64,000 bases of DNA, taken from positions 97,300-161,299 of the forward strand of contig JAJRVJ010000028.1 in the NCBI GenBank assembly GCA_024277435.1. The letters are read 5' to 3'. The stretch comes from Patescibacteria group bacterium. Lineage in GTDB: Bacteria; Patescibacteriota; Patescibacteriia; UBA9570. The number at the start of each line of letters is the position of its first letter. The stretch's first letter is position 1. Below are positions 15,530 through 60,136 of this stretch, piece after piece. The notes below the pieces were generated by a model. The model made no database searches, was not told the DNA's origin, and was given only the letters and a program-made list of their open reading frames with translations. A program made the translations under genes and the position numbers.

Positions 15530-15556
15530 CCCCGCGCGATAAACGTGGGGTTTTTT
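15530..15556 (+). terminator. intrinsic terminator (ccccgcg-cgataaa-cgtgggg followed by TTTTTT) at the left edge of GC-rich island A
   Basis: 7-bp stem including one G-U pair, followed by a T6 run. Confidence 0.6.
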
Positions 15557-15721
15557 CATTTAGGCTAATTCTCTGATCTCCCTCTCCTGAAAGGATGGGG
15601 GTCGGAGGAGGGGTCGATCAATGAATCGGTGGTGCTTATATGAGGCGCCAATAGGGTGCCTCAATAGGCATAAATCCACCAATTGTTCTTTACAGATGAT
15701 GAGTATGCAATACGATTCGAG

Positions 15722-15762
15722 GAAGCGCTGTATGGACTACACCGATGTCCATACAGCGCTTC
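15722..15762. promoter_or_regulatory. perfect 16-bp inverted repeat (GAAGCGCTGTATGGAC-N9-GTCCATACAGCGCTTC) upstream of the island A ORF; candidate operator or 5' leader structure
   Basis: The arms are exact reverse complements. Sits 53 nt upstream of ATG 15815 and is followed by direct repeats gcgcatc(t)gcgcatc. Confidence 0.5.
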
Positions 15763-15814
15763 CCGCGCATCTGCGCATCTTCATCTAACCCCGAAGACCC
15801 CTCAAGGAGGTCCT

Positions 15815-16213
15815 ATGTCGAGCAGCCTGCTCTCCAATCGTCCCGATTTCGCCATGCGCACTCGCGGTGGCCAGCGCCTGGCGTTCCACACCAGCGGTGG
15901 CGTCACCATGGCCTTCAGCCCCGCCACCAGTCAGCCCGTGCGCGCCCGCCTTGTCAGCGAGAAGGGTAACTCAAACGGTTGGCACCTAGTTGGTACTGCC
16001 GAGTTCGATGCGATGGCCACGCTCTACGGGCTGGTCAATGCCTTCGGCTCCTGGTGCCTGCGTGTCGTCCGCTTCGGCGTGGAGATGCTGGTGGACCTCA
16101 CTGCTCGTCACCTGGTGTGTGGTCGCTACGAAGGCGATGACGACTGGGTCAAGCTCGAGGCCGAGGGCTTCTGTGAGCTGGTGCGCGCGTACAACAACAT
16201 GTGCGCCGTCTGA
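15815..16213 (+). CDS. hypothetical protein (133 aa) in GC-rich island A
   Basis: ATG preceded by the strong SD AAGGAGG (7 nt upstream). About 65% GC with GC3-rich codons, unlike the host. A 12-bp GC hairpin follows the stop. Confidence 0.55.
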   Translation: MSSSLLSNRPDFAMRTRGGQRLAFHTSGGVTMAFSPATSQPVRARLVSEKGNSNGWHLVGTAEFDAMATLYGLVNAFGSWCLRVVRFGVEMLVDLTARHLVCGRYEGDDDWVKLEAEGFCELVRAYNNMCAV

Positions 16214-16230
16214 TGAGATGTTTTCGGGGA

Positions 16231-16266
16231 GAAGCGGTGGTGTGGTTCTAAGCCCACCACCGCTTC
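16231..16266 (+). terminator. GC-rich hairpin terminator (gaagcggtggtg...caccaccgcttc) after the island A ORF
   Basis: 12-bp perfect stem with no U-tract (high-GC-organism style). Confidence 0.5.
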
Positions 16267-16287
16267 GCAACCGCTACTGAAATGCTA

Positions 16288-16355: not shown

Positions 16356-18950
16356 ATGGATCACACATTTCTACAATTACAAAAACGTTTAGCAAAACAA
16401 CTCTGGATCGTTAAAGAACAAACCAATAAAGAGCGCACTCTCGTGTATATCGCAGGAATGTCGCTTGATCAAGAAGAGCTAGCCAAAGTGGCTGGTATTG
16501 CGTTTTATGAAGAGCGATTACTATATGTAATTGGTCTACTTCGTAATCCTGAAACAACGGTAGTCTTCGTTACCTCCACACAAATTGACCCAGTAATTTT
16601 AGAGTATTATTTCCAACTATTTGGACGTAATAAACAAGAACAGGCCAGCATGCGTAAGCGCTGGCATCATTTTTATATTGGAAATAGTCGCACTCATAAA
16701 ACTCTTACGCGAAAGGTATTGTCTTCCAAGCGGGTAACCAACCAGGTGTTATCAAAAATTGTGAGCAAAGAACATGCAGTGTTACGGTGTTTTAATGTGT
16801 CTGAAGATGAACAGGCTTTAGCTGTTAAATTAGGAATTCCATTATTTGCTCCTAATCCCGACCTATTACATTGGGGTTCAAAATCTGGTTCCCGTAAAAT
16901 ATTTAAACAGGCTAAGCTAAAACCAGCGTATGGAATTGAAGATATTCATTCGATGGAAGAGCTTATTGCAGCCATTCGAAAAATTAAGAAGCAGCGTAAT
17001 CCAGAGCAAGTTGTTATTAAATTTAATTACAGTTTTTCTGGCGTTGGTAACGCAAATTTACTACTAAAGAAGTTTCCAAAATCAAATAAAGCCGCTGAAC
17101 AATATCTTAAAAAGAATATTGTGCCGTGTGAGCCGGGCATGACAAAAGTACAGTATCTAAAAAAATGTTTCGAAATGGGCGGCATTGTTGAAGAATGGCT
17201 AGTTGGAGATAAAGTATATTCACCAAGCGTACAAGTACTCATTGAACCAAATCAAGAAGTACGTATTTTATCTACACATGAACAATTATTAGATCCCGAA
17301 ACAAAGCAGGTGTATTTAGGTGCTCGTTTTCCAGCTCGTAAAAAATTACGACCATACATTGTAGATCAGGCTAAGGCGGTTGGTAATGCCTTAGCAAAAG
17401 AAGGTGTTATCGGACCACTTGGTATAGATTTTTTGGTAGTGAAAAAACGCGGAAAAACATATACGCATCCGGTTGAAATTAATTTACGCAAAGGTGGTAC
17501 CACGCATCCATTTCAAATTGCCCAAATGCTTACCGAGGGAACTACTCGTCCGATTGGAGCAATGCTTGGTAAAAATAAGAAGAAAGTATATTACTACTCA
17601 TTCGATAATATTAAGTCTTCGCAGTATACGGGGCTTACACCGAAACAGTTAATAGCTATCGTGCGAGAATCGGGACTGGAATTTGATTCCGAAGGAAATA
17701 TGGGGGTAGCATTACATTTAATGGGTGCGCTCCGTAAATATGGCAAATTCGGTGCAGTATGTATTGCCCGCTCACCAAAGGCAGCTGAACAACTATTTGT
17801 GTTATTGAAAAAAGTAGTTGATGCAAAAGTGGAGGAATTGGATATTGCCATAGAGGCTGAAGAGCTTGAAAATACCGTGAATCGTAAACGTTTAGTGGAT
17901 ACATTTGTTACGTTAGCAAGAATTCCCAGCCCTTCAGGTGAAGAAGATCAATTGCGCATTTGGTTACGTGAGGAGTTGGTGCGTTTAGGGTGTACAGTGC
18001 GGGTAGATAAGGCTGGAAATATTATTGCTAAAAAAGCTGGCGTGGGTAAAGTGCCAATATTACTTTCATCACATATGGATACAGTGCAGCCATGCCATAA
18101 TGTAAAACCAGTTGTGCGTGGAGATGTGATTATGACCGACGGCACAACTATTTTAGGCGCCGATAATAAAGCCGGAATAGTATATATTATTGAAGCCTTG
18201 CGTATACTGAGAGAAAATAAATTTTCACACATACCATTAGAAATTGTACTATCCACGTACGAAGAGCAATTTTCTCAGGGAGTGAAAGCTTTAGACATGT
18301 CAAAAATTAAATCGCCATTTGGATTAGTAATTGATGGTGCAGATGTAGGTGAGGTAGATTATACAGCACCATATATTGCAGTAATTGATGTAACTATAAC
18401 TGGCAAGGCGGCTCATTCGGGTGTAGAGCCAGAGAATGGTATTAGTGCAATTCAAATTGCTGCGCAGGCCATTAATCGTATGAAGCTTGGAAGAATCTAT
18501 CCAGATACTACCGCGAACATTGGATTGATTACGGGCGGAACTAATCGTAATGCTATCCCTGGAGAAGTAAGGCTTATTGGTGAAGTGCGTAGTCTTTCAA
18601 AACGGAAGCTTGAAGAGCAACTTGAACGCATGCACAAAGCATTGGAGGATGCCGCAGAAAAATATGGTGGTTTGTTGGCAATAGATAGTAGAGTTGCAGT
18701 GAGTGGTTATACATTTTCAAAAACCGATAAAGATATTAAACACATTATGGCTGTAATGAAGCGGGTTGGTATTCAGCCACAATTACGACAAGCTGGCGGA
18801 GGGTCTGATGCGAATGTATTTGTAATGCGCGGTGTAAAAACTATCGATGTAGGTACGGGAGTACGTAAGCCCCATACTGTTGAAGAGCATATCAATATCA
18901 ACGATATGGTGCAGATGGCTGAATTCGTTTTAGAGATGATCAAGGTATAA
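16356..18950 (+). CDS. Fusion protein (864 aa): an N-terminal ATP-grasp-like ligase domain (about 500 aa, tentative) joined to a C-terminal M20-family metallopeptidase (PepT/ArgE/DapE-like).
   Basis: C-terminal M20 motifs: SSHMDTV, GADNKAG, TYEEQ, ITGKAAHSG, GGGSDANV. N-terminal half has an ATP-grasp-like Gly-rich segment, KFNYSFSGVGNANLL, but no confident family assignment. Confidence 0.6.
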   Translation: MDHTFLQLQKRLAKQLWIVKEQTNKERTLVYIAGMSLDQEELAKVAGIAFYEERLLYVIGLLRNPETTVVFVTSTQIDPVILEYYFQLFGRNKQEQASMRKRWHHFYIGNSRTHKTLTRKVLSSKRVTNQVLSKIVSKEHAVLRCFNVSEDEQALAVKLGIPLFAPNPDLLHWGSKSGSRKIFKQAKLKPAYGIEDIHSMEELIAAIRKIKKQRNPEQVVIKFNYSFSGVGNANLLLKKFPKSNKAAEQYLKKNIVPCEPGMTKVQYLKKCFEMGGIVEEWLVGDKVYSPSVQVLIEPNQEVRILSTHEQLLDPETKQVYLGARFPARKKLRPYIVDQAKAVGNALAKEGVIGPLGIDFLVVKKRGKTYTHPVEINLRKGGTTHPFQIAQMLTEGTTRPIGAMLGKNKKKVYYYSFDNIKSSQYTGLTPKQLIAIVRESGLEFDSEGNMGVALHLMGALRKYGKFGAVCIARSPKAAEQLFVLLKKVVDAKVEELDIAIEAEELENTVNRKRLVDTFVTLARIPSPSGEEDQLRIWLREELVRLGCTVRVDKAGNIIAKKAGVGKVPILLSSHMDTVQPCHNVKPVVRGDVIMTDGTTILGADNKAGIVYIIEALRILRENKFSHIPLEIVLSTYEEQFSQGVKALDMSKIKSPFGLVIDGADVGEVDYTAPYIAVIDVTITGKAAHSGVEPENGISAIQIAAQAINRMKLGRIYPDTTANIGLITGGTNRNAIPGEVRLIGEVRSLSKRKLEEQLERMHKALEDAAEKYGGLLAIDSRVAVSGYTFSKTDKDIKHIMAVMKRVGIQPQLRQAGGGSDANVFVMRGVKTIDVGTGVRKPHTVEEHININDMVQMAEFVLEMIKV

Positions 18951-19019: not shown

Positions 19020-19048
19020 TTGAAGAGCAGCATATAATTTGTTACAAT
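19020..19048 (+). promoter_or_regulatory. promoter-like TTGAAG-17-TACAAT, upstream of a 250-nt leader that ends in the palindromic terminator
   Basis: Hexamer match with 17-nt spacer; the leader 19049-19268 is non-coding. Confidence 0.3.
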
Positions 19049-19230
19049 ATAGCTGTCCCGTTCTTTCACTTAAACCACTTTCGACAATCTTTTCTCTAAG
19101 GGAGTTTTACATCGCTGTGCATCATGGAGTTCTCTGCGACCATTCAGGAACTTGGAAAGTTCTAAGCTGTTCAGTTGCGAACACCCACGTAAAATAAGAG
19201 GGGAGTTGGTTTAAGATATCAGGGCGGGCT

Positions 19231-19268
19231 AAAAAGTAGATGCATGCCATGGCATGCATCTACTTTTT
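19231..19268. terminator. 38-bp perfect palindrome AAAAAGTAGATGCATGCCATGGCATGCATCTACTTTTT (bidirectional intrinsic terminator / repeat)
   Basis: Exact reverse-complement symmetry with an A-run and a T-run flanking. A related core, GCATGTCATGGCATGC, recurs at 23404-23423. Confidence 0.6.
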
Positions 19269-19303
19269 CTGGGCAGTTGTTGTTTATAAGATAAAAATAG
19301 TAT

Positions 19304-20587
19304 ATGAATTTCAAAGAATTACGTACAAAAGAGTTCGCTCGATTAGTGGATCAGCAGCATGTGTATGTAGATTATACTGGTGGTGGGCAATGTCCGGCTT
19401 CTGTGATGCAGCAATATAGTGATTTATTACAGACTACGGCTTTTGGTAATCCACACTCTTATAATCCAACATCATTGCATACTACGGAACTCATTGAAGA
19501 AGTGCGTGGAATGATATTAGATTTTTATAATGCCAAAGATGATTACACACTTATTTTTACACAGAATGCTTCAGGTGCTTTAAAAATTCTTGGAGAATCA
19601 TATCCATGGGGAGAAAATAGCCTATATATTATAGCGCGTGATAATCACAATTCCGTATTAGGCATTCGTGAATATGCAAAAAAAGCCGGAGCAACGGTGC
19701 AGTATTGGGAACTTGATGATGAATTGCGTTTACAAAATAATCTTGGAGAGTTAATTGGTCAGCATCCTGGCAAAGATGTTGTTGTGGCATATCCTGCGCA
19801 ATCAAACTTTAGCGGCGTAATGCATTCATTAGAATATGTTGAACGAGCGCATCAGCTTGGCGCTACAGTATTTTTAGATACTGCCGCATTTGTTCCAACG
19901 CATACGTTGGACTTACAAGCTATTCAGCCAGATGCAGCCTGTGTATCTTTTTACAAAGTTCTTGGATTTCCAACTGGTATTGGCGCGCTACTTATTCGCA
20001 ACGATCTATTGGAGAAACTTGAGAAAGCATGGTTTGCTGGCGGCACTGTGCGTGGAGTAAGTTTGGAAGATCATGTATTAGAACGCGGCCATGAAAGTTT
20101 TGAAGATGGTACGGTAAATTATGCTCTTATTCCAGGGTTAAAATATGTATATGAATTTATTGAAGAGCTTGGTGGTGTTGAAAAAATTGAAGAGCATGTA
20201 ACAGCGCTTACCGCAAAAGCATTAGAAGAATTACAGCAGATAGAAAACGTGGTTGTGTATGGTCCTAAAACAATGGATAACCATGGTGCAACTGTTGCAT
20301 TTAATATTCTAGATAAAGCCGGAGCTCCTATTCATTATGGCGAGATTGAGAAGTTAGCGTATGATAAAAAGATTTCATTACGTGGAGGATGTTTCTGTAA
20401 TCCTGGAGCAGGTTCAAAATCGTTTGGTCTCGATTCAGCGTCGATGCAAGGATTATTAGGAAAATTAAAAACGCATTCTAAAGAAGATGCGGCCGTACCT
20501 GGGGCTATTCGTGTTTCATTTGGAATTGCTAATTCAGAAGAAGATGTAAACGCAGTAATAGATTTTGTAAAATCAGTTGTGCAGTAA
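19304..20587 (+). CDS. PLP-dependent aminotransferase class V fold enzyme, NifS/MOCOS-N-terminal-like (cysteine desulfurase / Moco sulfurase-like)
   Basis: 427 aa. PLP-Lys context SFYKVLGFPTGIGAL. LRGGCFCNPGAG motif typical of the MOCOS NifS-like domain. Confidence 0.65.
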   Translation: MNFKELRTKEFARLVDQQHVYVDYTGGGQCPASVMQQYSDLLQTTAFGNPHSYNPTSLHTTELIEEVRGMILDFYNAKDDYTLIFTQNASGALKILGESYPWGENSLYIIARDNHNSVLGIREYAKKAGATVQYWELDDELRLQNNLGELIGQHPGKDVVVAYPAQSNFSGVMHSLEYVERAHQLGATVFLDTAAFVPTHTLDLQAIQPDAACVSFYKVLGFPTGIGALLIRNDLLEKLEKAWFAGGTVRGVSLEDHVLERGHESFEDGTVNYALIPGLKYVYEFIEELGGVEKIEEHVTALTAKALEELQQIENVVVYGPKTMDNHGATVAFNILDKAGAPIHYGEIEKLAYDKKISLRGGCFCNPGAGSKSFGLDSASMQGLLGKLKTHSKEDAAVPGAIRVSFGIANSEEDVNAVIDFVKSVVQ

Positions 20588-20608
20588 TAATATAATTCTC
20601 AGTAAAAC

Positions 20609-20645
20609 AAAACAGCTCTCTTAAATAATTTAAGAGAGCTGTTTT
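20609..20645. terminator. palindromic terminator aaaacagctctcttaaa-taa-tttaagagagctgtttt
   Basis: 17-bp perfect arms with an A-run and a T-run flanking, directly after stop 20587. Confidence 0.6.
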
Positions 20646-20651
20646 GTAGTT

Positions 20652-20698
20652 CACCTCTATACATACCATAAATGTGTAGGCTGTTATGTATAGAGGTG
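20652..20698. repeat. inverted repeat cacctctatacat-N21-atgtatagaggtg at the left low-GC/high-GC junction of island B
   Basis: 13-bp perfect arms located exactly where GC content jumps. Confidence 0.45.
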
Positions 20699-20754
20699 TA
20701 ACGGACGCGAGTTGTAGCAAGCGTCCGTCCACCGAACTCCCCCTGGGAGCATGT

Positions 20755-21168
20755 TCAGATGATCTTGTGCTGTCTCCTGACGGAGGCAGCGACGACGTGG
20801 TCCAGTGCTTCCGCGCAGTTGCGCCAGGCGGTGCCGCTCACCACCACGATCTGGCCCTTGTTGGCGGAAGCAACGATCACGTCGGCGTCGCGCATCATTC
20901 CATCGACGTATAGGCTGTGGAATCCTACGGGCAGGAGGCCGGAGTCGATCAGGACCCGGATCCTCTCCTGACTACCGGACTTGCGCGGCAGGTTGGTCTG
21001 GACGGTGACACCCGGACCCAGGAAGTAGAGCTTCCCGTCGCTGGAGGTGTCAGCAGTGATGATCTTCTGACCGCGGCGGACGGTCAGCACCGATGCCCCT
21101 TCGGACACCAGGTGCTTCGCCGCAGCCTCGGAGAAGCCCAGTTGTTGCAGGATCTGTTCTGCTGTCAT
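20755..21168 (-). CDS. stand-alone cyclic-nucleotide-binding (CAP/CRP-type cNMP-binding) domain protein, 137 aa, with no effector or HTH domain
   Basis: Pattern VRRGQKIITADTSSDGKLYFLGPGVTVQT ... GLLPVGFHSLYVDGMMRDADVIVAS resembles the beta-roll plus phosphate-binding cassette (G-E-L...R-A). GC-rich. SD GAGGGAG upstream on the minus strand. Confidence 0.45.
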   Translation of the reverse strand: MTAEQILQQLGFSEAAAKHLVSEGASVLTVRRGQKIITADTSSDGKLYFLGPGVTVQTNLPRKSGSQERIRVLIDSGLLPVGFHSLYVDGMMRDADVIVASANKGQIVVVSGTAWRNCAEALDHVVAASVRRQHKII

Positions 21169-21382
21169 AGTTCTCCCTCGGATTGTTCCATGACAATCCT
21201 ATTCGGTGTGTACATATTTAATAGCATTATGAGTATTTTGTACATATCTATTGAAGTACTACTGAATATATTTTACTTGACAAAATACCCCAATAATTGG
21301 AAAATGATGTGCTCGCAGGACTAGTTTCCTGCTTGCGTTCCTTGAAAAATGGCACATGCCACTAACGTCATGAGGTCTCCAC
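21169..21382. promoter_or_regulatory. AT-rich divergent promoter region inside GC-rich island B, containing TTGACA-like hexamers and the palindrome TGGCACATGCCA (21350-21361)
   Basis: A local GC drop to below 35% between two divergently oriented GC-rich genes. The 12-bp palindrome sits 22 nt upstream of the cyclase ATG. Confidence 0.45.
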
Positions 21383-23332
21383 ATGTCTGATACCAATCTG
21401 CGTGGGGCCCTCCGTGATGTGGGCTCTGCAAACGCCGTTGCTACGGTTGTGGCGGTTGAGGCGGAAGAACTGCAGCGGAAGTTGCCTAAAGGCACGCTGG
21501 TCGAGCGTCTCTGGCACCAGGTTTTCATGCCGGAAGGCTGGAAGACCAAGGATCTACTGAAGCGCACCATGCCCCTGCTCACCTGGGTCGCCGTGGAGCG
21601 GAACCTGTTCCGCATTTTCGGTAATCCCCAGGCTGCTGCGAAGGCGGTGGCTGCCAAGGCCGCTACGGCGGACTTCGGTGGCTTGGAGTTGGCGGACTGG
21701 TTCCGTTGGCTTCTGCGGCTGTTCGTGCCGCCCAGTTTCGTGTTCGCCTCAATCATCCCGCGGCTGATGCCCAAGTTCAACACCCTGAAGCGAGTCACTC
21801 TCGTGGAAGAAGATGACAACCACGTCATCTATCGGGTGCAGTACATGAACAAGAGCGGTAAGCAGACGCACGATCCTCACGAGGATATGGGTTCCCGTGT
21901 CTGGTTCGAGACGGCCATGACGGCTGGCGCGGCCAAGTACTGGTTCCCAGACGCTGCGCGGGTAGTACACCACGTGTTGGAGTTGGACCTCGTCCAGTAC
22001 CTCCAGCACTTCACTGAGTTCATGCCTGGCACCACCTTCTACCGGTCCGGTGGTACGCTGCGTATGCGCGCTACCGATGCGCGGCCCGACGTCATGGATA
22101 CGGTAGTGGCCACTCAAGTTCAGCTTCGGCCGGATGATGACGGCTTCTACACCGTCGTTGCCACTCAGGAAGACCTGAACATGGGCTTCGACACTCGCCT
22201 TGGCTGGCGGGTGGAGCGTGATATTGCGGCAGTGGACGCCATGGGTGAAACCTGGCAGCCCGTCGCTAGTGGAACGATCTTCTGCGCTGGAGCCAAGTGC
22301 TCGCTCACCGAGTACAACTGGCGTCCGCAGACAATCGCTCTGCGCGCGGTGTTCCGGTTCGCGGTGTTCTGCATCAAGCTGCTCGGTGGAAGCTTCACTG
22401 GCGCCGCTAGGTTGGCCGAAGCCAAGACGAACATGGCTGAGCTGGCTGCCGAGCGTGATAACGCTCTGGGTGACGCCGAGCGTGAACGTGCGCTCCGCCA
22501 GGAGATGGACAAAGATCACTTCCCGACGGAACAGATCGCTACGGCGATGCGTGAGCAGGCGTTCAGCCCGCGTCAGCTCTTCGGAGCGTTGCTGTTCTTC
22601 GATCTCGGCGATAGCACGGCTGCTAACGAGCGTCTTCCGAACTACGCGGATTTGCTCCAGCAGTTCATGGATGCCATCGATGCCGTTATGGTGCGCTACC
22701 GTGAGGGAGCGCGTGAAGACGGTGTCGTAGGATTCACGGTCTCGGAGCCGGGCGATGCTCGCCTCATGATCTTCTCGCGGCGCTGGAATGAGCACCACCA
22801 GACTATGGACGAGGCCGTTGCCCGCGATTAGCTCGCGGTGGCCATTGCGGTGGCCACGGAGATCTTCGCGATCTTCAACCAGGTGTTCAATGTTCCTGGC
22901 GGCCCCAGCTGCGTGCGCATCGGCATTCACTACGGCGAGTTCAAGCTCGATCGCCGTGGTGCCAGCAAGAGCCGTGCTCAGTGTTACGGCGATACCACGA
23001 ACACCGTCGCTCGTTTGGAGGCGGCCGGTAAGTTGCCTGGCGTAGCGGCCGGTGACCTGCGCACCGTGGTGCTGATGGCGAGCGTGGCCGAACTGGTGGC
23101 AGACAGTCACGAGTTCGTGCCGGTCGGCACACAGACCTTCAAGGGTGTCTCCGGACACCATGAGGTCGTGCGGCTGCTGCTGCCTGGTCAGCAGGGCGTT
23201 CGTCGCCTCAAGGACTTCACCGAGGAGATCAAAACCTTGCCGGACGTCGCAATCCAGCAGTTGGGGCCAGCGGACGCCAACCGTGAACTCCTCGACGAAC
23301 TCCTCGATGAGTTCGTCAGCGAAGCAGAGTAG
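21383..23332 (+). pseudogene. Sensor class III nucleotidyl (adenylyl/guanylyl) cyclase: an N-terminal domain of about 390 aa of unknown type, a coiled-coil linker and a cyclase catalytic domain. It is interrupted by an in-frame TAG at 22829-22831.
   Basis: Cyclase motifs FFDLGDST, EPGDARLMIF, VRIGIHYGEF and YGDTTNTVARLE are split across ORFs 21383-22831 and 22838-23332, both in the same frame. About 62% GC. Confidence 0.6.
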
Positions 23333-23336
23333 CGCT

Positions 23337-23375
23337 CTACCCGGTCGTGCACCTAACAAGTGCGCGGCCGGGTAG
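23337..23375 (+). terminator. GC-rich hairpin terminator (ctacccggtcg...cggccgggtag) after the cyclase
   Basis: 11-bp stem with one G-U pair, enclosing an inner gcac/gtgc hairpin. Confidence 0.5.
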
Positions 23376-23388
23376 GGTAGGAGGATTT

Positions 23389-23441
23389 AGCCCCCTAGTG
23401 TGGGTGCATGTCATGGCATGCACTAAAACATTCAGGGGGCT
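23389..23441. repeat. nested palindrome agccccct...[GTGCATGTCATGGCATGCAC]...agggggct at the right junction of island B
   Basis: Outer 8-bp and inner 7-bp inverted repeats. The inner core is related to the 19231-19268 palindrome. Confidence 0.5.
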
Positions 23442-23574
23442 TTATCACATATTCAGGCACTTGATTTTTACTTAAAAAAATGTTATACTTCTAAAAACAA
23501 GTTCTTACACTAGTATAGTAATACATAAAAATACTATATTGCTGTAACAACTGGTAAAACAAAAATAAAAAAAC

Positions 23575-25062
23575 ATGTCCCATCAAAAAGAACCTGTCCA
23601 GAGCGCTATCACTGGAGATCAAGTTATTCATATTCCCACATTTCGTGAGAAAGTTTTTGGTTTTAGAGTTATTTCACTATTCAACCTACTATTAATAGTG
23701 GAGATTCCGTTTATCGTAATTGTACAATTTTTTCTCGATAAATCAGAACGTGATGAACTGTGGCGCTTAGCGGCGCATCGTAACTGTAATATTTTCTTAA
23801 AACTCTGGGGGATTGATTTAGAAGTAATCAACATTCCTCGTTACCAACATCCAGTTATTTATTCATCCAATCACCCTAGTATGATTGATGGGTTTATATT
23901 ATTCGGCTTACTGGGCCCAAATGTGGTAGCGCTTACTGCGCCGTTTACTAGTTTTGGCTTTCCTTTCAACTATTGGTTTAAAAATATGGGGTTTATTGAT
24001 ATTCAACGCGATGCCGATGATATTCATAAGCACCCCAAAGCCAATACACGTGATGAGGCGTTCAAAAAAATATTCAATCACGTAAAACAAGGGCATAGTT
24101 TATTAATATTTCCAGAGGGTCATGTTGAACGTACGCATAAGTTACATTACGTGCACACTGGTGTAGCGCGCATTGCATTGCGGGCTAAAGTTCCTGTGCA
24201 AGTATTAAGTATTGTGGGTATGGAAAAGTTATTTTTTGGTGGATTTGGTGCTAGTAAAGGTAAGCTACAGGTGCGGTTTGGTAGATTTATGGATCCACCA
24301 GCTGTATCAAAGCTCGTGCCATTTCGCAAAGTAGTAAAGGCCTTCTCCAAGGATATTGAACGAGCTATTGTTTCTATAATCCCGTTACGCTATCTTCCAG
24401 AGTATTATAATGCTACAGGGCAAAACATTGCGGTGTTCGTTGATATAGATAACACTTTGTACAATGGTTACTCAATGAAGGATTTTGTGCGCTATTTATT
24501 AAAAAAGAAATCACTTTCGAAATGGTTGCCTCTTAAAGTATTATTTTGGGTAATTTTAGAAAAGATACATATTGTTTCGCATAATCGCTTAATGAAAATT
24601 TCACTTGGTGTATTAGGTGGATTTGAAGTGAAGCATTTTAATAAGTTATGTGAAGATTTTTTTAATGACGTAGCTGTTCATAAAATCAATCATCATCTTT
24701 TGCCAGATATTAAAGATCACCAAGAGGATGGACATGTAGTTATCATCGTAAGTGAGGTAGTACATCCCTTAGCGAATTTGTTCAAAAAATACCTAGAAGC
24801 ATCAGCCTCAATTGATACGGTGCTACTAAAAAAGGATGGTGTGTACACTGGTGAGGTAGAAAGTTTAAACTATGGCTTTAGTAAAGCAGAGCATGTAGAG
24901 GAGTTTGCACATAACTTCAATATTAATGTAAAGAAAAGTTATGCCTACGCTGATTCCATTAGTGATTTGCCATTATTATATTCTGTTCGCTACAAAACCG
25001 TGGTAAATCCAGATAAAAAGCTTAAAAAAGTCGCTCAAAAGAACAATTGGCCAGAACTATAG
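23575..25062 (+). CDS. fusion of a lysophospholipid/1-acyl-glycerol-3-phosphate acyltransferase (PlsC-like) to a C-terminal HAD-superfamily (subfamily IB-like) hydrolase
   Basis: NHPSMIDGF (HX4D) and FPEG motifs in the N-terminal part. VFVDIDNTL and ADSISDLPLL HAD motifs in the C-terminal part. Confidence 0.65.
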   Translation: MSHQKEPVQSAITGDQVIHIPTFREKVFGFRVISLFNLLLIVEIPFIVIVQFFLDKSERDELWRLAAHRNCNIFLKLWGIDLEVINIPRYQHPVIYSSNHPSMIDGFILFGLLGPNVVALTAPFTSFGFPFNYWFKNMGFIDIQRDADDIHKHPKANTRDEAFKKIFNHVKQGHSLLIFPEGHVERTHKLHYVHTGVARIALRAKVPVQVLSIVGMEKLFFGGFGASKGKLQVRFGRFMDPPAVSKLVPFRKVVKAFSKDIERAIVSIIPLRYLPEYYNATGQNIAVFVDIDNTLYNGYSMKDFVRYLLKKKSLSKWLPLKVLFWVILEKIHIVSHNRLMKISLGVLGGFEVKHFNKLCEDFFNDVAVHKINHHLLPDIKDHQEDGHVVIIVSEVVHPLANLFKKYLEASASIDTVLLKKDGVYTGEVESLNYGFSKAEHVEEFAHNFNINVKKSYAYADSISDLPLLYSVRYKTVVNPDKKLKKVAQKNNWPEL

Positions 25063-30393: not shown

Positions 30394-30424
30394 TAAACCC
30401 CACGGCTAAAGCGTGGGGTTTTTA
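30394..30424 (+). terminator. intrinsic terminator aaaccccacg-gctaaag-cgtggggttt followed by T-run
   Basis: 10-bp stem followed by TTTTAG. Confidence 0.6.
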
Positions 30425-50544: not shown

Positions 50545-50575
50545 AATAACCCTACGTATAAAACGTAGGGTTATT
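50545..50575 (+). terminator. intrinsic terminator aataaccctacgt-ataaa-acgtagggttatt
   Basis: 13-bp perfect stem after the rplU stop. Confidence 0.65.
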
Positions 50576-54953: not shown

Positions 54954-54960
54954 CAAATAA

Positions 54961-54989
54961 AATAACGCTATAATAGGCGTTATTTTTTA
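54961..54989. terminator. hairpin aataacgc-tataatag-gcgttatt followed by T6 (bidirectional: after tRNA-Lys and after the minus-strand gene at 55004)
   Basis: 8-bp stem followed by TTTTTTAT. Confidence 0.6.
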
Positions 54990-58282: not shown

Positions 58283-58392
58283 AAATTGACCAGATGCGTA
58301 ATACGCGATAAGCTTCTCGATACTTTATACGCCTCGGGGGAGTGCGTATATGTTTGACATTTTGGGTACAGCTTCATACAAGGAGCTGAAAA

Positions 58393-58716
58393 GTGCCTAC
58401 ACCGGAACGTCCGGCGGTGCTGATTCATTCAGCTACCGCAGAAATATACGAGTTCCTGCCAACTCGTGATCGGCAGCGGCGACAAGACTCTCTCGCTCAG
58501 TTACAACTACTCAAGCAGCTGCTGCAGCGCCTCACAAGCAACGACATTACTCTGTCGCGTGCAGGGGAGTTGATTGTGAGACCCAACTTGGCGAGGCGCC
58601 GGCTGAGGGAGAATCCTCATAATCTGACGCACTACTGGGCAGCACGCTATAGTCGCTGCACTAACTGGGCTATGCTGCAATATGTTTTGCGCCTGTGCGC
58701 ACTATGCCCGGCATAG
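58393..58716 (+). CDS. hypothetical protein (107 aa), first ORF of GC-rich island C
   Basis: SD AGGAGC followed by GTG. GC-rich codon usage. Preceded by TTGACA-like promoter 58345-58375. Overlaps the next ORF by 22 nt in another frame. Confidence 0.4.
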   Translation: MPTPERPAVLIHSATAEIYEFLPTRDRQRRQDSLAQLQLLKQLLQRLTSNDITLSRAGELIVRPNLARRRLRENPHNLTHYWAARYSRCTNWAMLQYVLRLCALCPA

Positions 58717-58901
58717 ATCATTTGGTTGGCGAGTTGAATCGGGCTGGTCATCCGTTGCGTGAGCAAGTGCGACGCGCTCGGTTTGCTACTGATGTGCGCA
58801 TGCTACTCGCTGCGACGCGTCGCCTTACGGAGGCGCACCACCCGGCTGGAGCTGGTAGGCTTGTGGCTTGGCTCACTGGAGCTAAAGTGGAGGTGCCGTA
58901 G
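58695..58901 (+). CDS. hypothetical protein (68 aa), overlapping partner of the preceding ORF (possible two-gene module or frameshifted single gene)
   Basis: GC-rich ORF. Followed by hairpin cttggag-tag-ctccaag (58902-58918). Confidence 0.35.
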   Translation: MRTMPGIDHLVGELNRAGHPLREQVRRARFATDVRMLLAATRRLTEAHHPAGAGRLVAWLTGAKVEVP

Positions 58902-58977
58902 CTTGGAGTAGCTCCAAGAATGTTCAAGCGCCTTCTGAGTTCATCCCAGAACTTAGAAGGCAATAGGACAATACTCA

Positions 58978-59076
58978 TTGACTTTTTATTAAAATATAGT
59001 ACACTCGTGGCGCCTGTTAATTAGGCGTTCTTTACAATTAGGAGGAATTATCGTGAAGTTGAACGTATACTCGTAG
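58978..59076 (+). promoter_or_regulatory. promoter TTGACT-16-TACACT, then imperfect IR ggcgcct/aggcgtt, strong SD AGGAGG and a 7-codon mini-ORF (GTG-KLNVYS-stop, 59053-59076); candidate leader-peptide control region for the 176-aa ORF
   Basis: Hexamers at 58978-83 and 59000-05. SD 59040-45. GTG 59053. TAG 59074-76. Confidence 0.35.
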
Positions 59077-59194
59077 GTCACGGGTGCGGCAAATAGTGTG
59101 GTTTATACATGCGCATTACTTGCTACATCCGTGGCCACAAAAAAGAGTGGAGACGCTCTGATCTGTGTATCCCCCAAAAAAAGGTAGGTAAGTC

Positions 59195-59725
59195 ATGAGC
59201 ACCCCGCTCAGCATCATTCTCGGCAACTCTGTTGTCGGCCCCATCGTTCCCGTCCGCGTCGTCGAGACCGTGGATCCGCGGGTCTCGATTCACTTCAAGG
59301 ACGGCATCGTCCTCAACCTCGTCGGCCTCACCGCCGAGGAGCGCGATGGCTTCGACGAGACCGGGATCAACTGGCACGACGACATCGAGGACAGCGGAGC
59401 GCTGCTCCACCGCGACATGGGCGTCCTGTTCGACCGCAGCGGGATGACCAACCTGCGGCAGGGCGGTGAGCCCCACCCCGACCCCCGTGTTCGCCAGCAG
59501 GACTGGCAGAACACCGTGAGTTCGGTTACCGTCACCACGGGCGCCGGCCCCTACGGGCTGCTGGTGGCCCTCTGCGCCGCCGGCTGGGGACCCGCCATCA
59601 GCTCCCGGATCGACGTGGTCGGCCACATGCGGATGGCCGTGGGCAGCCGGGACTCCGCAGAGCTGGCCCGCTACGTGGGCGGGGCCTTCCGCTCCAGCGG
59701 ACGGAAGTACGTCCGGGTCGCCTAG
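59195..59725 (+). CDS. hypothetical protein (176 aa), GC-rich island C
   Basis: ATG with upstream AGGTAGG. About 65% GC. Followed by GC hairpin 59764-59802. Confidence 0.5.
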   Translation: MSTPLSIILGNSVVGPIVPVRVVETVDPRVSIHFKDGIVLNLVGLTAEERDGFDETGINWHDDIEDSGALLHRDMGVLFDRSGMTNLRQGGEPHPDPRVRQQDWQNTVSSVTVTTGAGPYGLLVALCAAGWGPAISSRIDVVGHMRMAVGSRDSAELARYVGGAFRSSGRKYVRVA

Positions 59726-59856
59726 AGCGCGCTGAAGAAGCGCAGGATCTACGGTTCAACTTCACGCCCCCTTCAATCGTGTATGCGAGGGAAGGGGGAA
59801 CGTGATCTTTCTAGATTAGATAAATAGTCTACAGAGAATACGTAAAATTTGCAGAG

Positions 59857-59884
59857 TTGACATATTCATAATTTTCCCTAAATA
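59857..59884 (+). promoter_or_regulatory. sigma70 promoter TTGACA-16-TAAATA upstream of the 60-aa ORF
   Basis: Consensus -35 and A/T-rich -10. Confidence 0.4.
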
Positions 59885-59892
59885 GTCGCGTT

Positions 59893-60075
59893 GTGCATTA
59901 CAACATAGTGAAGCGTCCCGCTGGCCTTCCGATAAAACTTCTCATGCAGCGGGTCTTCGGGCCGCTGGCGAAGGGAGATCCCCTCAAGCGAGACGTCGAG
60001 AAGAGGCGCCTAGGTAAGGTCACCCGCAACATGACCTCCGCCCTCAACACCAGTCGAGGTCTCCAGGAACTGTAA
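59893..60075 (+). CDS. small basic hypothetical protein (60 aa)
   Basis: GTG-start ORF, moderately GC-rich, between island C and asnS. Confidence 0.3.
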   Translation: MHYNIVKRPAGLPIKLLMQRVFGPLAKGDPLKRDVEKRRLGKVTRNMTSALNTSRGLQEL

Positions 60076-60136
60076 TTATTCCTAAATATTACACATGATA
60101 ATTGACGCATTAGGTAAGACTCCGTACAATACGCAT

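Follow-up and report, generated by a model that had tools for sequence, protein, structure and literature searches.

The 64-kb stretch of DNA analysed here (the window, from contig JAJRVJ010000028.1) carries two palindromes, P1 at 19231-19268 and P2 at 23389-23441, which share a central sequence and lie on either side of a segment of ~4.2 kb that encodes a pyridoxal phosphate (PLP) enzyme, a 137-aa protein and a cyclase-domain protein. An earlier note on this DNA had offered four explanations for the pair, namely plain terminators, copies of a dispersed palindromic repeat family, recognition sites of one DNA-binding protein and recombination sites that mobilised the segment. The window has a GC content of 39% with three GC-rich islands (A, B and C) and includes an EF-G/EF-Tu/SecY ribosomal-protein region, DnaB and aromatic amino-acid biosynthesis genes. 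SecY assigns it to the Patescibacteria or candidate phyla radiation (CPR), the named neighbours at ~60-73% identity including Kerfeldbacteria and Magasanikbacteria. A plasmid or phage origin of the region was considered and set aside, megablast having given no match.

For comparison we used eight related loci (L001, L034, L035, L036, L037, L038, L040 and L041/L042), which were reached via homologues of the PLP enzyme and the cyclase or, for L038, via a metagenome pattern scan. The PLP, M20 and HAD proteins of the window are 65-69% identical to those of most of these relatives. The local order in the window is ATP-grasp/M20 gene, P1, PLP gene, island B, P2 and HAD/acyltransferase gene, with the following features (GC3 denotes GC content at third codon positions):

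15550-16270, 20700-23441 and 58330-60080: GC-rich islands A, B and C, 55-62% GC, GC3 0.7-0.9
16356-18950: ATP-grasp/M20 gene, upstream of the small RNA gene
19020-19048, + strand: promoter-like site of the small RNA gene, TTGAAG-17-TACAAT with TG
19054-19230, + strand: unannotated structured RNA, rod-like, ~177 nt ahead of the terminator
19231-19268: P1, composed of A5, a 14-nt arm, a CATG loop, a 14-nt arm and T5, taken as a bidirectional intrinsic terminator
19241-19258: shared core in P1, TGCATGCCATGGCATGCA, equal to (CATGS)x3
19304-20587, + strand: class-V aminotransferase (PLP enzyme) gene, host-type composition, GC3 0.24
20607-20647: the PLP gene's own terminator, a perfect 41-nt palindrome
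20701-20728, - strand: hairpin 3' of the small island-B gene, with AGGGGG-N5 ahead of it on that strand
20755-21168, - strand: small island-B gene, 137 aa, GC3 0.80
21277-21305: promoter-like site of the cyclase gene
21350-21361: TGGCA-N2-TGCCA in the 5' region of the cyclase gene, as expected by chance and not conserved among relatives
21383-23332, + strand: island-B cyclase-domain gene, 649 codons, GC3 ~0.75
23334-23378, + strand: hairpin next to the cyclase stop codon, the first of the 3' hairpins, with a 19-bp stem
23379-23384, + strand: AGGAGG, part of a recurrent island-gene 3' module
23389-23441, + strand: P2, a composite hairpin followed by UUUAU at the right edge of island B, putative cyclase-gene terminator
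23405-23422: shared core in P2, TGCATGTCATGGCATGCA, with a C-to-T change that gives a G-U pair in RNA
23461-23489, + strand: promoter-like site of the downstream HAD/acyltransferase gene
23575-25062: HAD/acyltransferase gene, downstream of P2

The palindromes and their common tip

P1, with the sequence AAAAAGTAGATGCATGCCATGGCATGCATCTACTTTTT, is palindromic in 38 of 38 nt as the earlier note had stated, and P2 is indeed nested, its outer stem (AGCCCCCT / AGGGGGCT) enclosing GTGCATGTCATGGCATGCAC and with it the common core. Both contain TGCATG(C/T)CATGGCATGCA, which has no other occurrence in the window, so that the claim of a core unique to the two palindromes held, and the identity proved longer than had been claimed, spanning 18 nt (TGCATGYCATGGCATGCA) and, in an extended version, 20 of 23 nt. 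The 16-nt core GCATGYCATGGCATGC was found at two places only, with 0.06 matches expected at ≤2 mismatches, and there are still two copies in the 64 kb when 3 mismatches are allowed. The sequence CATGNCATG is likewise confined to P1 and P2. CATG itself has an ordinary frequency in the window (observed/expected 0.98), and a CATG bias or restriction-modification footprint was rejected since CATG, GCATGC, CCATGG and ATGCAT all occur at expected frequencies.

All 44 perfect-stem hairpins of the window were compared pairwise. P1 and P2 formed the best pair, with 18 nt at ≤1 mismatch, and the runner-up pair reached 11 nt. Random hairpins matched in stem and loop length were generated in 200 sets, none of which attained 18 (maximum 16, P(≥16)=0.01). 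We therefore regard the resemblance as real for this window, a conclusion that is somewhat weakened by the number of windows from which the pair was drawn.

A further palindrome reported inside island B does exist at 21350-21361 (TGGCACATGCCA) but its supposed relatedness did not stand. Its arms are 5 nt long and run in the order opposite to that of the P1 centre, ~60 sites of this type are expected per spacer length in 64 kb and relatives lack it, and it was therefore rejected as a third member. The 11-mer CATGCACCCAC, common to P2 and a nested hairpin of L001, was also dropped, being unconserved in the L041 orthologue and within chance expectation.

The small RNA gene and P1

The 350 nt between the M20 and PLP genes consist of a conserved promoter region and a conserved RNA of ~177 nt. 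An equivalent TG-extended -10 box follows a conserved block (CGTCAAGCAA..GTGTATAAAATGTAGATAG) in all relatives. Using nhmmer the RNA is detected with an E value of 7e-47 in the window and of 1e-27 to 1e-52 in the relatives, with one copy per locus in L001, L034, L035, L036, L038, L040 and L041/L042 and none detected in L037. Eight independent minimum free energy folds gave the same rod architecture. The helix closing the 5' and 3' ends covaries (CCUGCUC/GGGCAGG, CUCAUUUGAG/CUCAAAUGAG, ACCCUGU/ACAGGGU and, in the window, CCCGUUCU/AGGGCGGG), and inside it lie CUUAAACCA/UGGUUUAAG, conserved internal loops, GGGAGUC/GACACCC and a variable tip. These are single-sequence folds, used instead of RNAalifold on MAFFT alignments, which gave a partial consensus only; the alignments had the outer helix one register off and a deletion in two sequences. 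A search of Rfam with the RNA returned hairpin noise and no family match. Its shape is 6S-like, and a search of the literature on 6S RNA in CPR found nothing relevant.

P1 follows this RNA directly and folds into a 17-bp stem (centroid) with a CAUG loop at -24 to -27 kcal/mol (z -6.5), its flanks being symmetric with TTTTT at 19264-19268 and AAAAA opposite. The relatives carry, directly 3' of the small RNA, a hairpin and a run of 5-8 T whose sequence is unlike that of P1. In L040, L036, L001 and L034 this terminator is of an ATAC(C/T)C..G(G/A)GTAT type followed by T6, and in L035, L038 and L041 it is in each case another symmetric A-tract/stem/T-tract palindrome, the one in L038 (AAAAAATGTAGAGACGCGATATATCGCGTCTCTACATTTTTTTT) having the 10+8+10 geometry and the outer GTAGA/TCTAC of P1. 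What follows the hairpin is the PLP gene in five genomes; in L038 it is a flavodoxin-like gene and in L040 and L041 a gene of convergent orientation. As the downstream gene varies while the RNA and hairpin stay, P1 would belong to the RNA gene and not to the PLP gene, and a riboswitch or leader of the PLP gene was ruled out on account of the flavodoxin-like and convergent genes downstream. P1 has the stem-loop, the U-tract and the conserved position at the end of a transcription unit that characterise intrinsic terminators, and the small RNA is, on this comparison of loci, a stand-alone gene with P1 as its putative terminator.

Terminators of the host type are typically symmetric A-tract/stem/T-tract palindromes, as at 20607-20647, 30395-30421, 50545-50575 and 54959-54986. 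TATAnT-N6-7-ATG stands at the start of the gene downstream of the small RNA in several relatives, which suggests leaderless mRNAs.

P2 and the 3' end of the cyclase gene

P2 starts 57 nt past the cyclase stop codon and folds as a single composite hairpin of -33 kcal/mol. The same layout, of one or more hairpins, AGGRGG, 4-7 nt, a G+C-rich hairpin and a U-rich tail, is found in L001, L034, L035, L040 and L041, where the cyclase-end hairpins are unrelated in sequence to P2 and the U-rich tails are interrupted, e.g. UUCAUUUA. From its position and fold P2 is probably the terminator hairpin of the cyclase gene, with an efficiency that is uncertain given the weak U-tract. Position, structure and positional conservation of predicted terminators in the relatives thus support, at both sites, the plain terminators that had been among the explanations proposed.

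The layout belongs to a 3' module of island genes (stop codon, often 1-2 hairpins, AGGRGG, 4-7 nt and a G+C-rich hairpin) that occurs in the window at 23379-23441, 20701-20745 (- strand) and 16213-16266, the island A gene having GGGGAG in place of AGGRGG. A small ORF (open reading frame) behind AGGAGG ahead of the cyclase terminator was rejected as it is not conserved, and so was a general link between the RNA terminator and the cyclase terminator, the two showing no similarity in L035, L040 and L041.

The PLP gene and island B in related loci

The interval from the M20 gene to the HAD gene contains island B in the window, L001, L034, L040 and L041, and in L035 the island follows the PLP gene. 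Of these loci, L040 and L041 lack the PLP gene, and L036 and L037 retain the PLP gene without island B, so that the synteny of relatives lacking the island speaks against the segment as a unit. L038 has the flavodoxin-like gene instead of the PLP gene, and in L037, L002 and L004 the PLP gene is found in other contexts. The composition of the two parts also differs, with a GC3 of 0.24 for the PLP gene vs 0.75-0.80 for island B. P2 sits at a compositional boundary, and P1 lies in host-type DNA at the end of the RNA gene, off any compositional junction. The palindromes do bracket the PLP gene and island B geometrically, as had been described, but not as junctions of a segment, P1 belonging to the upstream transcription unit. 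A search for a cognate recombinase, in the segment and in further ORFs (~28 ORFs of the window scanned with Pfam), found none. The core, whose absence from other island junctions had been named beforehand as evidence against recombination sites, is not present at the junctions of islands A and C, and at P1 and P2 the flanks are unrelated with no target-site duplication visible. Since the presence of the PLP gene and that of island B vary independently in the relatives, we reject the mobile-segment reading, and judging by these loci the two are not one mobile unit.

The small island-B gene has orthologues in L001, L034, L040 (85% identity) and L041, and its 137-aa product gave no significant Pfam match. 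Homologues of the cyclase number only 6 among 5.8 billion proteins, all apparently of this lineage. The cyclase gene of the window contains an in-frame TAG at 22829-22831 where all close relatives have Glu (GAG to TAG), and it is either a recent pseudogene or affected by a sequence error.

Dispersal of the core

No copy of the core is present in the related loci (~130 kb). A scan of 185,579 species genomes gave 29 loci, each with one site, ~12 of which represent a single conserved, apparently coding stretch in Desulfobacterales that is unrelated to the window. The exact 18-mer TGCATGCCATGGCATGCA occurs in this stretch in L006, L009, L013, L014, L016, L019, L024, L028, L029, L031 and L033. Among 2.9 million viral contigs there were 0 matches to the 18-mer core, 15 to the 16-mer core, all of them singletons, and 2 to the arms of P1 around an unspecified centre. 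The GTAGAGACGC-N8-GCGTCTCTAC hairpin served as positive control, the same method recovering 132 sites of it in 97 viral stretches, which demonstrates that it is able to detect real families.

Both P1 and P2 are intergenic and have 20 of 23 nt in common, as is the case for the conserved extragenic palindromes known as repetitive extragenic palindromic (REP) sequences and bacterial interspersed mosaic elements (BIMEs), and the copies that could be counted toward a family of this kind are two in the 64-kb window. No Y1 or REP-associated tyrosine transposase (RAYT) was found among the ~28 ORFs scanned, which are part of the window's ORFs only. A miniature inverted-repeat transposable element (MITE) of 100-400 bp with terminal inverted repeats and a target-site duplication was rejected, the similarity covering just 18-23 nt with no duplication. 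With two copies in 64 kb, none in the relatives and singletons elsewhere, the dispersed REP- or MITE-like family suggested earlier found no support.

Other hairpin families in the relatives

The GTAGAGACGC-N8-GCGTCTCTAC hairpin, in some cases a perfect palindrome, is found in the relatives L001 (4921, 5538 and 6190), L036 (5318), L037 (1), L038 (1108) and L041 (3472, 4894 and 9236) and is not present within the window. By chance ~2 sites would be expected in IMG/VR, compared with the 132 recovered there (stretches L043-L139). A G and a C flank the hairpin almost without exception, GATTAATC, AAAATCTT and AAAATATT are among its loops, and it is placed either downstream of genes, as with capsid and protease genes in L045, or ahead of each small gene, as in L059 and L122. 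One copy stands at the site orthologous to P1 in L038 and another adjoins that site in L041. L001 and L041 each have three, of which one lies within the loop of a larger hairpin that is itself conserved. A full-text literature search for GTAGAGACGC found nothing relevant.

A further sequence, ATCAGTATGTYGAC, is present on both island-B 3' hairpins in L001 (11390-11403 and 14002-14015), L034 (3245-3258 and 5862-5875) and L041 (~9330 and ~12003, with one change in the right-hand copy). Its copies are inverted in the DNA and have the same sense in both mRNAs, and they are kept in the three genomes with stems that differ. In addition a C-rich/TCCTGAAAGGA/G-rich hairpin lies at the left edge of island A (15578-15602) and is identical in 22 of 25 positions to hairpins of L035, where five copies flank island B (7610, 7642, 11383, 13445 and 13487); it may be a second short hairpin family tied to island edges. 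Tip sharing among hairpins, to judge from these sequences, recurs within this group.

Origin of the shared tip

We consider P1 and P2 to be, more likely than not, two separate Rho-independent terminators with a copied tip, which delimit no mobile unit. P1 would be an A-tract/stem/T-tract module ending a small RNA gene that has its own promoter, and P2 the last of the hairpins 3' of the GC-rich island-B cyclase gene. Template switching or gene conversion, acting between two hairpins that lie 4.1 kb from each other, would have transferred the tip of one to the other, or else a small palindromic repeat private to this genome would have done so. The shared tip is absent at both orthologous positions in every sampled relative and would therefore have arisen in the window's own lineage, P1 and P2 both being derived states as far as the sampled sequences indicate. 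In L040, the closest relative for island B (small protein 85%, cyclase 64-67%), the RNA terminator is of the ancestral type and the cyclase terminator is unrelated. Hairpin-tip copying, either local or from a small private family, is favoured over chance, and the tip common to P1 and P2 is probably a copy confined to this genome. The analysis shows the sequence, structure, position and positional conservation of the hairpins, the statistics of their resemblance and the independent gain or loss of the PLP gene and island B, whereas the termination activity and the mechanism of copying are inferred.

Several points weigh against this reading. Termination at P1 and P2 is deduced rather than seen in transcripts, and the U-tract of P2 is weak (UUUAU only). 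The copy count covers the 64-kb window only, which leaves room for a private multi-copy family, and the relatives carry multi-copy palindromes (GTAGAGACGC-N8 and CCCC..TCCTGAAAGGA..GGGG), hairpin families being a habit of the lineage. The core is of low complexity, with three CATGS units, such that convergence is easier than the simulation assumes, and as the pair was drawn from a scan of many windows the multiple-testing burden is above the one-window level.

The alternative that survives best, although we regard it as unlikely, is that P1 and P2 are members of a dispersed REP-like family private to the source genome with more copies in terminators elsewhere. The similarity of the pair is non-random, GTAGAGACGC-N8 palindromes stand at gene ends three times each in L001 and L041, one of them nested like the core of P2, and P1 matches the orthologous palindrome of L038 in geometry and outer arms. 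Against it stand the count of only two copies in 64 kb even at 3 mismatches, the absence from related loci and the lack of any species genome or viral contig with >1 copy among those scanned; the arms of P1 with a free centre gave just the 2 viral matches, and the ORFs tested include no Y1/RAYT-type transposase.

Chance, in the form of two unrelated terminators with CATG-rich tips, is improbable. The core is a simple pentamer repeat, no further copies exist in anything searched, neither site is conserved in relatives and the pair was chosen post hoc. These points are to be weighed against the 18 nt with 1 mismatch (20/23) compared with a maximum of 16 in the random sets and 11 in the next-best pair, and against the confinement of CATGNCATG to the two sites. 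Comparably doubtful is the idea of a minimal module, a self-propagating perfect palindrome, that writes itself over terminator-hairpin tips in this lineage, with P1 and P2 as two of its copies; the GTAGAGACGC-N8-GCGTCTCTAC hairpins may be of the same kind. If true, the module would be a hairpin-borne recognition or mobile element and might connect the small RNA with the genes of the GC-rich islands.

That the shared tip is a functional cis-element appears very unlikely, whether bound by one trans-acting protein or RNA that would couple the small RNA to the cyclase mRNA or with the two tips pairing with each other. P1 and P2 are complementary to each other across 18 nt, one G-U pair excepted, and the 14-nt apical ATCAGTATGTYGAC stays constant on the island-B 3' hairpins of L001, L034 and L041 while the stems change, so that hairpin tips can be conserved in this system. 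However the RNA and cyclase terminators are dissimilar in L035, L040 and L041, the tips are buried inside very stable hairpins and the cyclase gene of the window has a premature TAG. Finally, recombination or transposition ends that mobilised the 4.2-kb segment, for which related inverted sequences at both segment ends and the position of P2 at a compositional boundary could be cited, are hardly credible given the independent variation of the PLP gene and of an island B that keeps its locus in six genomes, the location of P1, which would attach the terminator of the upstream RNA gene to the segment, and the lack of a recombinase among the ORFs tested, of a visible target-site duplication and of the core at the junctions of islands A and C.

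Comparison with known systems

P1 and P2 resemble bidirectional intrinsic terminators in their G+C stem-loop and U-tract, symmetric A/T tracts, 3' placement and fast sequence turnover at a conserved position. They differ in that P1 is perfect through the loop (38/38) and P2 is composite with a weak U-tract, and unlike ordinary terminators the two share a tip of 18-23 nt. With REP and BIME elements they have in common that they are short palindromes outside genes, located at gene ends, with a recurring conserved sequence and a possible role as terminator or mRNA stabiliser. REPs are present in tens to hundreds of copies together with a cognate RAYT gene, RAYT transposases being what mobilises them, whereas the window has two copies of the core in 64 kb and no RAYT among the ORFs tested.

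The DNA uptake sequences (DUS) of Neisseria and uptake signal sequences (USS) of Pasteurellaceae are similar in that a short specific inverted pair forms a terminator hairpin, a likeness that is closer for the GTAGAGACGC-N8-GCGTCTCTAC hairpins of the relatives than for P1 and P2. DUS and USS have a density of about one per kb, single copies within genes included, which neither the P1/P2 core nor GTAGAGACGC reaches in the loci available. Integron attC sites are likewise imperfect palindromes 3' of small gene units that are unlike the surrounding genome, but P1 and P2 have no GTTRRRY core, attI or array, the ORFs tested include no integrase, the island genes come with promoter-like sites of their own and island B is syntenic in six genomes.

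GC-rich islands and significance

Island B occupies the same locus in six genomes in which the flanking proteins are ~67% identical. Its own proteins are more diverged (25-67%, with 85% for the small protein of L040) and yet retain a GC3 of 0.75-0.80 vs 0.24-0.36 for the neighbours, a persistence for which ordinary amelioration of foreign DNA is no explanation. A Shine-Dalgarno-like 4-mer at -18 to -4 precedes 2 of 37 host genes vs 4 of 5 island genes (e.g. AGGAGG before 15815). We found nothing relevant in the literature on GC-rich islands in Patescibacteria.

The palindrome pair itself carries little weight, being two putative terminators with a common tip, and the comparison with related loci removes the idea of a mobile unit made up of the PLP gene and island B. 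Of note are the GC-rich, Shine-Dalgarno-bearing and lineage-restricted islands, which are locus-stable in a genome of 39% GC. Better targets than the pair are these islands, the conserved small RNA and the short hairpin families.

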